DNA of 21,361 nt from a virus (lineage: Duplodnaviria; Heunggongvirae; Uroviricota; Caudoviricetes), in the IMG/VR virus record IMGVR_UViG_2690316028_000007; one strand, given 5' to 3'. The notes below the pieces were generated by a model. It was not told where the DNA came from. It made no database searches and saw only the letters and a program-made list of their open reading frames with translations. Position 1 is the first letter of the stretch; the number at the start of each line of letters is the position of its first letter. The translations under genes were made by a program, and so were the position numbers. Shown here one piece after another: positions 1,835 through 21,282 of this stretch.

Positions 1835-2386
1835 ATGACTCAAGACTATGAACTGGTTGTGAAAGGAGTTCGCAATTTTGAGAATAAAGTGGCGGTAACT
1901 GTAGCCTTACGGGACAAAAAACACTTTGACGGTGAAATTTTTGACCTGGACATCTCGCTGGACCGTGTTGAAGGTGCCGCGCTGGAGTTTTATGAGGCAG
2001 CAGCCAGAAGGAGCATCAGACAGGTCTTCCTGGATGTTGCTGCCGGGTTATGTGAAGGGGATGAGCAGTCGTCGGAAAAGCGCCCCATAATTTTAGAGGC
2101 GCAGAATGTGTGGATAACCTACAAAGGAAAGCTACCGGGAAGAATTACTGGTTCTCTGAAGACGCCACCGACGGCATTGCGGTCAGAAAAAGATGATATT
2201 GAATCGCCCATTGAAAAACTGGAGGGCAGCGTCGCTGATCTGAATAAAAAATTGTCGGTGCTGATTCCTTCTGAAGATGAAAAAAAACGCCGCGATGAGC
2301 AGTTTGCGGCGTTTTACGATTATTGCATTGAAGTTACTCGCAGGAATTTTGTGAAGATTTTTGAGGAGGGTAAATCTCTTCAGTAA
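1835..2386 (+). CDS. Hypothetical 183-aa protein inserted between holin and endolysin (possibly YdfR/DUF1327-like; unverified)
   Basis: ATG at 1835 lies 5 nt after the holin stop, preceded by AAGAGAG. Charged, non-membrane protein. Same strand as the lysis genes. Confidence 0.6.
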   Translation: MTQDYELVVKGVRNFENKVAVTVALRDKKHFDGEIFDLDISLDRVEGAALEFYEAAARRSIRQVFLDVAAGLCEGDEQSSEKRPIILEAQNVWITYKGKLPGRITGSLKTPPTALRSEKDDIESPIEKLEGSVADLNKKLSVLIPSEDEKKRRDEQFAAFYDYCIEVTRRNFVKIFEEGKSLQ

Positions 2387-2594
2387 GCTTATTGGCGGAC
2401 GCTGCAATTAATTCAGGAAGGTCCGCAAGGTCATCTGTCAGTGGATATGATGAAAAATCGGCGGCAGTTCTGTTAAGAAGCGCTTTAACTAATTCCTTTT
2501 CCTTCTCCGGCAACAAGTTGATTAGAGCTACGACTGCTTGCCTGAGTGCGATTAAATCAGCAAAAGTTTGTTTTGGTAGATTTGTGTAATCCAT
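2334..2594 (-). CDS. Hypothetical acidic 86-aa protein, antisense to the late operon; 3' end overlaps the preceding ORF by 53 bp
   Basis: ATG at 2594-2592 on the minus strand, preceded by AGG-containing CACAGAGGCGACT. Protein-like composition (LPEKEKELVKALLNRTAADF). No family recognised. Confidence 0.4.
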   Translation of the reverse strand: MDYTNLPKQTFADLIALRQAVVALINLLPEKEKELVKALLNRTAADFSSYPLTDDLADLPELIAASANKLTEEIYPPQKSSQNSCE

Positions 2595-2707
2595 AGTCGC
2601 CTCTGTGTTTATCAGATTGACATCCTCCTCCCGCCAGTGCCCATCACTGGTGAGGTAAGATTTAACATATCCGGGGATTTGAAGCCGATAAATCCTGATA
2701 AATATCC

Positions 2708-3735
<1,028 letters not shown>

Positions 3736-3986
3736 ATTAATATTAAATCGGATTATTTTTAGCGCTGAATGTGAAATTTAAATAAAAAGGACTCTTCCAT
3801 GAGTCAAAATCCTTGAAATCTTAAGGGTAAGATAAAAGGTCATTAGACAGAATGACACGTTTTATTAATAAATAAAGCTATTGTTTCATTCGTGTGTTTT
3901 TCTTTACAAAAGTAATCCTTGCTATGGTTGGTTAATCATGCGTTAATGGTGTTCTGGTTTGTTACAAAATTATCTGAAGCAGTCAT

Positions 3987-3995
3987 TGTTATAAT
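3987..3995 (+). promoter_or_regulatory. Candidate extended -10 element (TGtTATAAT) upstream of cspI
   Basis: TGTTATAAT read directly at 3987-3995, about 100 nt upstream of the cspI start. No good -35 found; csp genes usually have longer 5' UTRs, so the real promoter may lie further upstream. Confidence 0.3.
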
Positions 3996-4098
3996 TTTAT
4001 TATTTGTACCTCTTGAGATTTCCTTGTTGGTTTTTCTCTCTGATATTTTTTTTCGGACCATTCTGCCCAAGGGCTAACTTCTTCAAAAGGTAATAATG

Positions 4099-4311
4099 AT
4101 GTCTAACAAAATGACTGGTTTAGTGAAATGGTTTAACCCTGAAAAAGGTTTTGGTTTCATCACGCCGAAAGATGGTAGCAAAGATGTGTTTGTCCATTTC
4201 TCAGCTATTCAGAGCAACGATTTCAAAACGTTAACTGAGAATCAGGAAGTCGAATTTGGTATTGAGAACGGACCTAAAGGCCCCGCGGCTGTTCATGTTG
4301 TGGCACTTTGA
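4099..4311 (+). CDS. cspI: CspA-family cold-shock protein (70 aa)
   Basis: [38 protein letters not shown]... carries the canonical cold-shock RNP motifs. AAGG upstream. Tandem ATGs at 4096 and 4099. Long AT-rich leader. Adjacent to gnsB as in Qin. Confidence 0.9.
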
Positions 4312-4510
4312 GGTAGAAAATATTACAAACCATATTCACTTTAGATGCCCGTGTTGCCATGGTTCTCAGTATAGAACATCATCTTTTGATGTTTCTGACA
4401 GGAATCCTTTCGGGGCAAAATGTATCTTTTGTAAATCAATGATGATTACATTTGATAATATTTCACAATACTTAAATGTTAGCCGTCTGTCGTTAGATTT
4501 AAGAAAGTGA
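4295..4510 (+). CDS. Candidate zinc-ribbon small protein (CPCC...CIFC) between cspI and its terminator; start uncertain
   Basis: ORF contains [31 protein letters not shown] (CxxC-17-CxxC). The only in-frame ATG (4295) overlaps the cspI 3' end and has a poor SD. Lies upstream of the terminator at 4516-4538, so it would be co-transcribed with cspI. Confidence 0.3.
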
Positions 4511-10893: not shown

Positions 10894-11468
10894 TGGCATT
10901 CAGAATGAGTGAACAACCACAGACCATAAAAATTTATAATCTGCTGGCCGGAACTAATGAATTTATTGGTGAAGGTGACGCATATATTCCGCCTCATACA
11001 GGTCTGCCAGCAAACAGTACCGATATTGCACCGCCAGATATTCCGGCAGGCTTCGTGGCTGTTTTCAACAGTGATGAGGCATCGTGGCATCTCGTTGAAG
11101 ATCATCGGGGAAAAACCGTCTATGACGTGGCTTCCGGCGACGCGTTATTTATTTCTGAACTCGGTCCGTTACCGGAAAATGTTACCTGGTTATCGCCGGA
11201 AGGGGAGTTTCAGAAGTGGAACGGCACAGCCTGGGTGAAGGATACGGAAGCAGAAAAACTGTTCCGGATCCGGGAGGCGGAAGAAACAAAAAACAACCTG
11301 ATGCAGGTAGCCAGTGAGCATATTGCGCCGCTTCAGGATGCTGCAGATCTGGAAATTGCAACGGAGGAAGAAATCTCGTTGCTGGAAGCATGGAAAAAGT
11401 ATCGGGTATTGCTGAACCGTGTTGATACGTCAACTGCACAGGATATTGAATGGCCAGCACTGCCGTAG
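10893..11468 (+). CDS. tfaQ: Tail fibre assembly chaperone (lambda Tfa-like)
   Basis: [54 protein letters not shown]... is nearly identical to lambda Tfa as remembered. Start overlaps the stf stop (TAATG). Confidence 0.9.
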
Positions 11469-12156: not shown

Positions 12157-12473
12157 AGTGAGACTCTATTCGAAATTGGTGTTCATATCATAATGCATCT
12201 CAGAAAATAATTATGATTATTTTTGTGCATATTTGTATGTACACGTTCGAAAATAAACGAATGCGTATGCAACCCCGTAATTTTTGGTGAGACCCAAAAT
12301 CGATTTTGTGAAAAATGGCTTTAACTCGGTTTGTTTTTCGAGTTCCGGGCGGACTCAAGGAAGAAGAATAGTGTTGCGTGTTATTTTAACCAGATTTCAA
12401 GTTGTTTGGACGTGGAAAAGTGGAGCAAAATGTTGTTAAAGTGGAAAAATGATAAAAAAGTAAGTTTATTATA

Positions 12474-12707
12474 TTACATTTTACCATTTAAATTTTGGTT
12501 GTCTTTAAGAACTGATATCGCTGTTTGTAATAATTCTTTGTTATCCAGCCATGATTTTTTCTTTATGTTTCCTTCAATGTAATCAAGCAATGTTCTGGTA
12601 TTAATAGGTCTTCCCTGTTTTGCTACTTCCACTACAGCATCCCCTAGGATAATTCTTACTTCAGGAAGCTGCGCAGGGAACCACTTTAGGGTGTCTTTTG
12701 ATTTCAT
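12474..12707 (-). CDS. ydfK: YdfK/YnaE-family small prophage protein (77 aa), reported as cold-shock induced
   Basis: MKSKDTLKWFPAQLPEVRIILGDAVVEVAKQGRPINTRTLLDYIEGNIKKKSW... ATG at 12707 preceded by AAGGA. The longer 88-aa start has no SD. Long AT-rich upstream region. Confidence 0.85.
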   Translation of the reverse strand: MKSKDTLKWFPAQLPEVRIILGDAVVEVAKQGRPINTRTLLDYIEGNIKKKSWLDNKELLQTAISVLKDNQNLNGKM

Positions 12708-13207
12708 GAAGATATTCCTTAAAATATTATTGATTTTCATTGCGATATTGTATGTCTGATTCAGGATATGTTGACTTATACATCGGTTTTGTCTGGGTTA
12801 TTGGATATGCCAATCCCTAATTTTATTAGGGCATGACTAAAAATGCTGAATATGATAAGGAGAGAAGTGATTATCAGTATGCTGTTCATATAGCCTCGAA
12901 TTAGTAATGTGTTATATATGATATAGTTGACAATTTTTATCTTGGGTGTTTTTAAAGTTCGTAGATAAACATTGTCGTTTCAGGTATACAGGAATGCTAG
13001 CAGGTGGCAGCAAAAATCAGGCGGTTTATGGCGCAAGCTGAAGCGGCAACTGCAAACTATCTTATGCAGAGACTCTACACGGATTGGGTTTAAAAGTATA
13101 CATAGATAACAGTTTTTATCTGAAAAAGAAAAATATCAAGGTGATATAGCCTATATGCCTTTGATGCGGAGGAATGACTGTGATGGGAGTGATGTATCTG
13201 AATAGTT

Positions 13208-13247
13208 GAAAAACCGCAGACACGCCTTATGCAAGAACGTGCTGCGG
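13208..13247 (-). terminator. Candidate minus-strand Rho-independent terminator about 250 bp inside the prophage end (possible tI/sib analogue)
   Basis: CCGCAG(A)CACG ... CGTG-CTGCGG imperfect 10-bp stem with 13-nt loop, followed on the minus strand by TTTTTCAAC. Confidence 0.4.
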
Positions 13248-13492
13248 TTGGCTGGTAAATTTTTCGATAGTGTGAGTATTGAATGATTTCCAGCCGTTCT
13301 TGATTTTACGCATAAATCCATGAAAAAACTACTTATCTGTTGGGGAGTTTTTTTGGGGCATATATGGGACAGAAATAGGCCCCAGATAGACACTGAGATC
13401 GAACTTAGGATGCTTTTTAAAAAATGCAACTATCTGAAAAAACCTAGAAAACGCCAAGGAAACCACAGGATGGGAAAAAACACCTGTGAATT

Positions 13493-14776
13493 ATGGATTT
13501 CCAGTTATATTCGCTCGGCGCAGCGTTAGTGTTTCATGAAATATTTTTTCCTGAATCATCAACGGCAATGGCGTTAATTCTGGCAATGGGAACCTATGGT
13601 GCAGGTTATGTGGCGCGTATTGTCGGAGCATTTATTTTCGGCAAAATGGGCGACAGAATAGGGCGTAAAAAAGTGCTCTTTATTACCATCACCATGATGG
13701 GGATCTGTACCACCTTAATTGGAGTGTTACCGACCTATGCACAGATTGGTGTTTTTGCCCCCATCTTGCTGGTGACGCTGCGTATTATTCAGGGATTGGG
13801 TGCAGGTGCGGAAATTTCCGGTGCCGGTACGATGCTGGCGGAATATGCGCCAAAAGGTAAGCGCGGAATTATCTCCTCATTTGTGGCTATGGGAACTAAC
13901 TGCGGAACCTTAAGCGCAACGGCAATCTGGGCCTTTATGTTCTTCATTCTCAGTAAAGAGGAACTGCTGGCGTGGGGATGGCGTATACCGTTCCTGGCGA
14001 GCGTTGTCGTGATGGTCTTTGCTATCTGGTTACGTATGAATCTGAAAGAAAGCCCGGTCTTTGAGAAGGTTAACGACAGCAACCAACCGACAGCAAAACC
14101 TGCACCTGCTGGTAGCATGTTCCAGAGCAAATCCTTCTGGCTGGCAACAGGGCTGCGTTTTGGTCAGGCGGGTAACTCCGGTTTAATTCAGACTTTCCTT
14201 GCAGGCTATTTAGTACAGACGTTATTGTTTAACAAAGCAATTCCAACAGATGCATTGATGATCAGTTCGATTCTCGGCTTTATGACCATTCCGTTCCTTG
14301 GTTGGTTATCCGATAAAATTGGTCGCCGGATCCCGTATATTATTATGAATACCTCTGCGATTGTGCTGGCGTGGCCAATGCTTTCTATCATCGTAGATAA
14401 AAGCTATGCCCCGAGCACCATTATGGTTGCACTGATTGTGATTCATAACTGTGCGGTGCTGGGATTATTTGCTCTGGAAAACATTACCATGGCAGAAATG
14501 TTCGGCTGTAAAAACCGCTTTACCCGGATGGCTATTTCAAAAGAAATTGGTGGTCTTATCGCTTCCGGTTTTGGTCCTATCCTGGCGGGTATTTTCTGCA
14601 CCATGACGGAATCCTGGTATCCGATCGCCATTATGATCATGGCATATTCAGTAATTGGTTTAATCTCTGCGCTGAAAATGCCAGAGGTGAAAGACCGTGA
14701 TTTAAGTGCGCTGGAAGACGCTGCGGAAGATCAACCGCGTGTTGTAAGAGCTGCGCAACCTTCCAGAAGTCTGTAA
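13493..14776 (+). CDS. ydfJ: MFS transporter of the metabolite:H+ symporter family (ProP/ShiA-like); reading frame opens only at 13490, consistent with loss of about 40 N-terminal residues at the prophage junction
   Basis: 427-aa ORF with MFS signatures (GKMGDRIGRKKVL, 12-TM-like hydrophobic profile). An in-frame TGA sits immediately upstream at 13487-13489. Starts at a motif (DFQLY) that in relatives lies about 45 aa into the protein. Confidence 0.8.
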   Translation: MDFQLYSLGAALVFHEIFFPESSTAMALILAMGTYGAGYVARIVGAFIFGKMGDRIGRKKVLFITITMMGICTTLIGVLPTYAQIGVFAPILLVTLRIIQGLGAGAEISGAGTMLAEYAPKGKRGIISSFVAMGTNCGTLSATAIWAFMFFILSKEELLAWGWRIPFLASVVVMVFAIWLRMNLKESPVFEKVNDSNQPTAKPAPAGSMFQSKSFWLATGLRFGQAGNSGLIQTFLAGYLVQTLLFNKAIPTDALMISSILGFMTIPFLGWLSDKIGRRIPYIIMNTSAIVLAWPMLSIIVDKSYAPSTIMVALIVIHNCAVLGLFALENITMAEMFGCKNRFTRMAISKEIGGLIASGFGPILAGIFCTMTESWYPIAIMIMAYSVIGLISALKMPEVKDRDLSALEDAAEDQPRVVRAAQPSRSL

Positions 14777-21007: not shown

Positions 21008-21282
21008 TGTTTTTTGTCCACGCTATTATATGTAAAGGTGATTTGCTTTTTCTGTATGCTCGTCCAATATAATAATTTTCAAACATATAAATCCGATTAT
21101 TCTGAAAATATGTTTAAGACTCTTCAATCTTCTTAACTTTAGTGAGTTAAATTCTCTGAATATTTGACAGCTAGTGGGCTGATTTTAAATGCCTTATAAC
21201 AATTGGCAGTATTCTTATTTGGCAATTATAAAAATAGCAACCAGACTTAATAAGTCAAACCAAACGCAATTAAGGAGTTAGT

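Follow-up and report, generated by a model that had tools for sequence, protein, structure and literature searches.

In phage lambda, the terminator tI and the retroregulation site sib lie just across attP from int; transcripts that read through provide a substrate for RNase III and int mRNA is then degraded in 3′-to-5′ direction, while terminated transcripts escape. Terminators reportedly also close the 'morons' of lambdoid phages, as Juhala et al. are said to have described in 2000. Besides these, small RNAs are encoded by prophages or derived from 3′-untranslated regions, such as DicF in Qin and AgvB and AsxR (PMC4104026).

In this study, we analysed a stretch of 21,361 nucleotides (nt) from a virus of the Caudoviricetes (IMG/VR record IMGVR_UViG_2690316028_000007), referred to as the window, with focus on positions 12708-13490. 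An initial annotation, made from the letters of the sequence, had described this region as AT-rich and non-coding, with a perfect palindrome upstream of ydfK and a minus-strand hairpin plus T-run likened to tI/sib. Coordinates refer to the window unless stated otherwise. The flagged hairpin is a genuine minus-strand terminator, and we consider it likely that it forms the terminal stem-loop of a conserved two-hairpin RNA element of ~100 nt in lambdoid phages, which acts as end-of-operon terminator of leftward transcription. This covarying element, apparently undescribed, is common to lambda, HK97, phi80, Shiga toxin (Stx) phages and many prophages, and is far better conserved than its neighbouring genes.

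Structure and covariation of the two-hairpin element

The whole element occupies 13206-13314 on the minus strand as delimited by a covariance model (R1), which scored the window copy with 111.3 bits (E = 4e-30) on this strand versus 11.9 bits on the plus strand. Read as minus-strand RNA, it consists of a conserved heptamer TAnAATC, stem 1 and, directly following, hairpin 2. The heptamer of the window, recognised from column frequencies, is TAAAATC (13297-13303, minus strand); it resembles a −10 promoter element (TAnAAT) and is located 6 nt upstream of stem 1. Stem 1 (13250-13290, minus strand; from fold and covariation) pairs GGCUGG with CCAGCC around a conserved 29-nt loop, AAAUCAUUCAAUACUCACACUAUCGAAAAAUUUA; across copies this loop comprises ~29-33 nt and reads AAAUCAUUCAAUACUCGCACUAUCGAAAGUUCA, in short form UCAUUCAAUACUCGCACUAUCG. 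In hairpin 2, AACCGCAGCACG (13249-13238) pairs with CGUG-U-CUGCGGUU (13224-13212) around the loop UUCUUGCAUACGA, followed by UUUUU (13213-13209). The fold of hairpin 2 has a free energy of −20.7 kcal/mol (z = −4.1), and none of 200 shuffled sequences was equally stable; for the whole window copy, −34.3 kcal/mol and z = −6.0 were obtained.

When the hairpin region alone was used for BLAST searches, lambda, HK97, phi80, HK106, mEp460, phiP27 and Stx2a phages matched with 83-94% identity, and the flanks differed. For the analysis of covariation, copies were collected by two exact-pattern scans of IMG/VR with anchors upstream of the hairpin and in the hairpin loop, respectively, each yielding at least 120 loci; from the matches listed, 100 distinct copies were aligned (alignment A5), and the figures on covariation, columns and promoter matches given below refer to copies among these matches. 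Both stems are kept by compensatory substitutions. Such changes occur in 15 of 19 pairs, and 148 cells of the alignment carry double changes, versus 37.5 ± 7.5 after shuffling (0 of 500 shuffles reached 148) and 15-40 in controls with slid partners; the shuffle control ignores the relatedness of the copies, which the slid control does not. Likewise, 89.6% of the cells are paired, versus 27-58% with slid partners. Compensation extends to 10 of the 12 pairs of hairpin 2 and to 5 of the 7 pairs of stem 1, where GACUGG/CCAGUC and GGCUGAU/AUCAGCC are examples. Hairpin 2 was also found independently by RNAalifold, with 8 of 9 pairs compensated. The structure is strand-specific: canonical pairs make up 92.0% of hairpin 2 when read from the minus strand versus 85.8% for the other, and G.U pairs favour the minus strand.

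Besides the stems, three sequence features are conserved. The columns of the heptamer are T92 A94 N A94 A90 T99 C95, i.e., the third position is variable, as are the flanks. The loop of stem 1 is nearly invariant, which is partly so by construction, as the first anchor lies inside it; in the second, independent anchor set it shows only 1-4 changes, together with compensated stems such as GGCUGAU/AUCAGCC. The loop of hairpin 2 is conserved, too.

RNA 3′ ends at hairpin 2

With a G+C-rich stem of 12-13 base pairs followed by U5, hairpin 2 (13209-13249, minus strand) has the features of an intrinsic terminator. A simple terminator scan overlooked it due to the bulge and the long loop. Published Term-seq data for Escherichia coli K-12 MG1655 (Adams et al. 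2021, supplementary file 1) list an orphan 3′ end at 1632571 (+) with 3283 reads from lysogeny broth (LB) at an optical density of 0.4 and, on a later sheet, a second one at 1632574 (+) with 2150 reads. For conversion, the K-12 coordinate equals 1645779 minus the window coordinate up to ~13418, beyond which an indel of 1 nt shifts it by one. Via the printed sequences, the two ends correspond to 13208 and 13205 on the minus strand, i.e., to the C right after U5 and to a position 3 nt further. No 3′ end at hairpin 2 was present on the opposite strand in the Term-seq tables searched. Hairpin 2 with its U tract thus makes RNA 3′ ends in vivo, whereby Term-seq by itself reports 3′ ends irrespective of whether they arise by termination or by processing. 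The hairpin plus T-run of the initial annotation is therefore confirmed by fold energy, by U5 on the predicted strand and by mapped 3′ ends; a lack of termination at this site, which it had named as counter-evidence, was not observed.

Distribution and association with DinI-family genes

The usual location of the element is the 3′ end of an accessory gene that is read leftward and mostly belongs to the DinI family, in the interval separating the tail-fibre genes from att and int. Among the matches listed, 152 loci had enough upstream sequence for inspection, and at 68 of them the conserved CATTCAA of loop 1 follows the end of a full, co-oriented DinI-family gene at a distance of 19-53 nt. The element is far better conserved than these genes: DinL of phi80 and DinI of phage 2H10 share 27% amino-acid and 41% nucleotide identity, while the elements following them are 83% identical. 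This comparison was made across subtypes, as dinI and the element show too little variation within one DinI subtype. The chromosomal dinI gene of K-12 ends with an ordinary terminator and is devoid of the element.

A DinI coding sequence (PF06183) is present in 2H10, phi80 and a prophage of strain ESBL 15; in the window, only its flanks are found. In the ESBL 15 prophage, the DinI-like gene lies between the arm of the attachment (att) site and the element, and the window matches both sides without the gene. Positions 13341-13487 of the window correspond to the att arm and the initial bases of the DinI-like gene as annotated, and a degenerate stub at 13305-13340 (minus strand), identified by alignment with the ESBL 15 prophage and 2H10, to the 3′ end of a DinI-family gene. 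This stub accompanies the element in other contexts, too. The absence of a DinI-family coding sequence from the Qin lineage places the element ~180 base pairs (bp) from the att core.

In K-12, the prophages Qin and Rac use different att sites. Their sequences agree to ~98% over the stretch that runs from the tail-fibre genes to hairpin 2 and are unrelated farther on, so the hairpin marks a mosaic junction. The Rac copy (K-12; L003 4224-4306) retains hairpin 2 only and scored 46 bits; no 3′ end was found for it in the Term-seq tables searched. On its att-proximal side, which is unrelated, Rac has repeated TTTTGCCCC motifs, possibly integrase sites of the arm type. In lambda, a full copy with weakened stem 1 and without U tract follows ea31 at ~24154-24261 of the lambda genome (L007 1655-1762), and a diverged copy of hairpin 2 is present at 22565-22663 (L007 66-164), after ea47, where the tail-fibre assembly gene adjoins. 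In a single scan across species-representative genomes, exact loop copies were detected in Escherichia coli, E. albertii and E. ruysiae, Shigella, Citrobacter, Salmonella enterica subsp. arizonae, Trabulsiella and Pantoea stewartii, with up to four copies per genome. These copies reached model scores of 83-128 bits, except for one in Citrobacter braakii (L237) with 40 bits. Matches in a metagenome-assembled genome of Bacillota and in a Chryseobacterium assembly look like contamination.

Position relative to int and attP

HannyBb and Tritos, which are active phages, have int, attP and the element on one strand. The int stop codon is 37 nt before the att core, the element lies ~180 nt beyond the core, as in the window, and the U run of the hairpin follows ~325 nt past the int stop across attP. 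Between int stop and hairpin, a single weak terminator-like match was the only one found. Int transcripts of the excised phage that have crossed attP therefore reach the hairpin as their first strong terminator, at the place that tI/sib has in lambda. With respect to position, the analogy to lambda tI in the initial annotation was well founded: the hairpin is on the int strand, across attP, and no other convincing terminator lies between.

As a side observation, the attP region of HannyBb (L004 4101-4130) contains a promoter-like sequence, TTAACA-18-CATAAT (10 of 12 consensus matches), which spans the att core and is directed toward the element. Its −35 part lies on the int side, so integration divides the site and only the excised phage has it complete.

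Function of the element and alternative explanations

As terminator, the element would end leftward operon transcription, i.e., that of int across attP in the Qin lineage and of dinI elsewhere. In the excised phage, it would stop int transcripts, and possibly those from PL, after they have crossed attP. In both the integrated and the excised state, it could shield the separately promoted ynfT-ydfK unit from incoming transcription and block antisense transcription into the convergent tail-fibre genes. Several observations weigh against this reading. U5 is short for a terminator, and the K-12 transcript ending at the hairpin has no mapped 5′ end. As the K-12 prophage carries no int upstream of the hairpin, the observed 3′ ends cannot derive from int transcripts. 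Many copies, that of lambda included, have no U tract directly after hairpin 2, so termination cannot be the sole conserved function. A plain terminator also leaves the conservation of the stem-1 loop, the hairpin-2 loop and the TAnAATC heptamer unexplained, although the apparent invariance of the stem-1 loop is inflated, as half of the alignment was gathered with the anchor inside this loop.

Alternatively, the element could be the gene of a stable small RNA of ~85-100 nt, expressed from its own promoter at TAnAAT or processed from the upstream mRNA, with the conserved stem-1 loop acting as a trans-acting seed or protein-binding platform. This is compatible with a role as terminator, and we regard it as possible but clearly the less probable view. 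The shape is typical of small RNAs, with two hairpins of which the last is a terminator, and the 3′ end in K-12 is an orphan with no annotated gene upstream on its strand; for the Rac copy, in which the upstream half is missing, no 3′ end is tabulated. Moreover, the element is retained where the DinI gene was lost and is conserved far above the neighbouring coding sequence. Judged from sequence, promoter activity at TAnAATC, conserved except at its third position and flanked by variable sequence, is possible: ~30% of the contexts have a −35 element with 4 of 6 matches at the right spacing versus ~12% in the background. Averaged over all copies, however, no consistent −35 enrichment is present (2.64 matches versus 2.45 in the background), and the window copy has 7 of 12 matches by our count and was not called by the promoter scan. 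A 5′ end was found neither in the Cappable-seq supplements searched, in either coordinate system, nor in the other published tables searched, and the Term-seq counts are modest (2,000-3,300). A search of 2.1 Mb of phage DNA for targets complementary to either loop returned only the element's own antisense. Tentatively, the element might represent an undescribed functional RNA family of lambdoid prophages of Enterobacteriaceae, a stable RNA of ~85-100 nt that is self-promoted or cut from the 3′ ends of dinI-type messages, whose loop acts in trans or binds protein and whose terminator is merely the 3′ module. Should the element do more than terminate, prophages would carry a widespread RNA, with several copies in a genome of E. 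coli or Shigella; K-12, with a 3′ end already mapped, permits a direct test.

Three further explanations can be set against the terminator reading. The element could be a linker at the DNA level that persists through module exchange between lambdoid phages, with the RNA structure being incidental. Mosaic junctions do coincide with its exact edges, as for Qin and Rac at hairpin 2 and for several phage matches that stop at 13263, and the contexts on both sides vary widely; but recombination alone does not give compensatory double changes in 15 of 19 pairs or strand-specific G.U pairs, and RNA 3′ ends map to the element, which makes this explanation improbable. Less likely still is a sib of the lambda type, in which read-through would generate the RNase III substrate. 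It has position and strand relative to int and attP in its favour. When folded in the same way, lambda sib gains six extra pairs through its U tract, so that a long duplex arises only in read-through RNA; in contrast, both flanks of the window hairpin stay unpaired in folds of 68, 93 and 191 nt, and the stem is not extended through the U tract. Furthermore, HK97, which has int and att of lambda, carries an annotated sib (21042-21091) and, beginning at the very next bases, a homologue of the element with two separate hairpins; since the two adjoin each other, the element differs from sib. The element of phi80 and 2H10 comes after a DinI-family gene, with int on the other strand or distant, and that of lambda after ea31, 3.3 kb from att. 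The sib-like reading of the initial annotation was consequently abandoned.

Equally remote is the view that the palindrome is an operator or regulatory hairpin for ydfK and the region a long structured cold-shock leader. The inverted repeat CCCTAAT-TTT-ATTAGGG is indeed present at 12815-12831, with the ydfK start codon (12707) 108 bp downstream, in agreement with the initial annotation, which had given ~110 bp. As a local RNA hairpin it has −14 kcal/mol (z = −3.5), ydfK is strongly cold-induced (PMC10654059), and an RNA 3′ end at 13035, described below, places transcription far upstream. The repeat is, however, part of the ynfT coding sequence, where it encodes H-A-L-I-K-L-G, and is not remarkable by frequency: 0.58 perfect repeats with 7-bp arms and a spacer of 3-10 nt are expected per 783 bp of such composition (probability of at least one, 0.38), and the window holds 29 comparable ones. 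In Rac and phage 2H10, a synonymous GCC-to-GCT exchange in one arm breaks the symmetry of the DNA; this C-to-U change leaves a G.U pair possible in RNA. The palindrome was accordingly rejected as a regulatory site of ydfK. A structured leader of the cspA type was rejected as well, because the putative ynfT-ydfK leader, which the initial annotation had proposed to fold, is unstructured and folds no better than shuffled sequences (z = −0.46), and because the Rfam cspA thermoregulator (RF01766) had no match in 12300-13700 even at E-values up to 10.

Prophage end, att site and neighbouring genes

The window covers the tail-fibre end of a Qin-type prophage of E. coli integrated in ydfJ. Positions 12400-13600 are 99.8% identical to many E. 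coli chromosomes, for which RefSeq lists ydfK, ynfT and a truncated ydfJ, and at least 80% of this interval is present in 2012 of 5426 complete genomes. The gene order, as in strain 042 and K-12 MG1655, is tail-fibre genes (+), pinQ-ydfK-ynfT (all −), the end of Qin and ydfJ′ (+). The region 12708-13490 is AT-rich, as had been stated, with a G+C content of 36.9% versus 46.5% for the whole window.

The att core, GAATTATGGATTTC, is located at 13488-13501 and represents the end of the prophage. It was determined by alignment of attR (the window), attP (HannyBb and Tritos) and attB (uninterrupted ydfJ of a sequence type 131 (ST131) strain), with phage sequence on its left and host sequence on its right side. 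In agreement with this, the annotated Qin boundary of K-12 (1632277) corresponds to 13501. The hairpin is 252 bp from this end, close to the ~250 bp initially estimated. The att-proximal arm (13341-13487) is specific to phages integrating in ydfJ; it is common to HannyBb, Tritos and the ESBL 15 prophage and is missing in Rac. A repeat search in the arm for arm-type Int sites yielded short A-rich repeats only. The complete 606 bp from ynfT to the att core are found in mid-genome position with 98-99% identity in mEp460_ev081, HannyBb, Tritos and PhiR42_1. Beyond the core follows ydfJ′ (13493-14776, plus strand), a host transporter gene cut short by the insertion, whose RefSeq-annotated ATG lies within the att core. 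Intact ydfJ (ST131 strain, L012) encodes 455 amino acids, the truncated remnant 427; by length arithmetic, the annotated ATG at 13493 appears to be an internal in-frame codon of intact ydfJ (codon 29). ESBL 15 (L011 1-2510) contains a different prophage at the same ydfJ site, in which genes of two type III effectors, NleC and a HECT-type E3 ligase, lie beside the DinI-like gene and replace the pinQ-ydfK-ynfT module.

In contrast to the description of the region as non-coding and poor in open reading frames, it contains ynfT (12776-12889, minus strand), annotated in RefSeq and encoding a small hydrophobic protein of 37 amino acids. It matches the Pfam family YnaM (PF23676) with 96.2 bits (cut-off 27) and the NCBIfam family YnaM/YnfT (NF041477) with 63.9 bits (cut-off 35). 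Chromosomal tagging with the sequential peptide affinity (SPA) tag allowed VanOrsdel et al. to detect the identical product of K-12, then named ynfQ, as well as its Rac twin YnaM (PMC6001520). The cold-shock protein gene ydfK (12474-12707, minus strand; 77 amino acids) follows, as evident from the open reading frames and from the RefSeq annotation of near-identical genomes.

A consensus scan suggests TTCAGA-18-TATACT (13095-13124, minus strand) as candidate promoter of ynfT-ydfK. Its predicted start near 13088 would result in a leader of ~198 nt, and conservation among Qin, Rac and 2H10 across the 320 bp from hairpin to ynfT is highest in the block that contains it. In vitro binding peaks of RNA polymerase have been reported in the ydfI/ydfK spacer, and the candidate promoter lies beneath them, with the peaks placed by our own estimate of the conversion from old coordinates. 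An orphan 3′ end of K-12 at 1632744 (1026 and 2065 reads; Adams et al. 2021, supplementary file 1) corresponds to 13035 on the minus strand, ~53 nt past the predicted start and within the putative ynfT leader. The minus strand is hence transcribed there, and the end could reflect a short leader RNA or a processing site. A second promoter-like site, TCAACA-16-TACAAT (12747-12774, minus strand; 9 of 12 matches in the consensus scan), is located in the ynfT-ydfK spacer, is identical in Rac and 2H10, and is regarded as a candidate only. Apart from the element, the ~780-bp region is ordinary and contains ynfT, the att arm and, upstream of ynfT-ydfK, a probable promoter whose leader is unstructured. 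For annotation, it can be described as ynfT, ydfK, att arm and terminator; no exotic explanation is needed, and the label sib is inappropriate.

Elsewhere in the window, two further Rfam matches were obtained: a full-length match to IS009 (221 bits) at 11236-11434 (+), inside the tail-fibre assembly gene tfaQ and also found in phage 2H10 (L010 555-753), and a match to the cspA thermoregulator (110 bits) at 3941-4357 (+), presumably the leader of the csp-family cold-shock gene of Qin.

Comparison with known systems

The sequences of the loops and hairpins were not found in the searchable literature, and nothing on the element was retrieved there via ynfT, ydfK or dinI; the records of phi80, HK97 and lambda have nothing annotated at the element. 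In Rfam 15, neither gathering-score nor E-value scans assigned a family to the element, to the window at this site or to six diverse copies. The only Rfam signal at the element was a sub-threshold match to the Shigella small RNA CssrB (RF02799) at 13109-13246 (+), with 25 bits (gathering score, 76). Hairpin 2 alone accounts for it, as its reverse complement forms the last ~35 positions of the model; the match is on the opposite strand, leaves the rest of the model unaligned and does not cover stem 1. It hints at RNAs of the opposite strand in Shigella that may end at hairpins related to this one.

Lambda tI/sib shares with the window hairpin the location just across attP from int, the int strand, a comparable distance (~230 nt from int stop to stem in lambda versus ~290 nt here) and the order of hairpin and U run. 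The two differ in that no sequence similarity was detected between them, and in that the window hairpin does not form the extended duplex and therefore has no evident RNase III substrate specific to read-through RNA. Unlike sib, the element occurs away from int in many phages and coexists with annotated sib in HK97. It is thus a positional analogue of lambda tI, but is not homologous to sib and probably not equivalent to it in mechanism.

With the terminators of lambdoid morons, the element has in common that it is factor-independent and placed at the end of an accessory gene, here of the DinI family, between tail-fibre genes and att. Unlike these terminators, it possesses a second covarying stem, a conserved large loop and a conserved heptamer; furthermore, it is far more conserved than the genes that it follows and is kept where the gene is gone. 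Small RNAs from 3′-untranslated regions and prophages, such as DicF and AgvB/AsxR, resemble it in size, in the two-hairpin shape ending in a terminator, in their prophage location and in having a mapped 3′ end. AgvB and AsxR are found at the PR′ moron site, whereas the element occupies a different position of the prophage.

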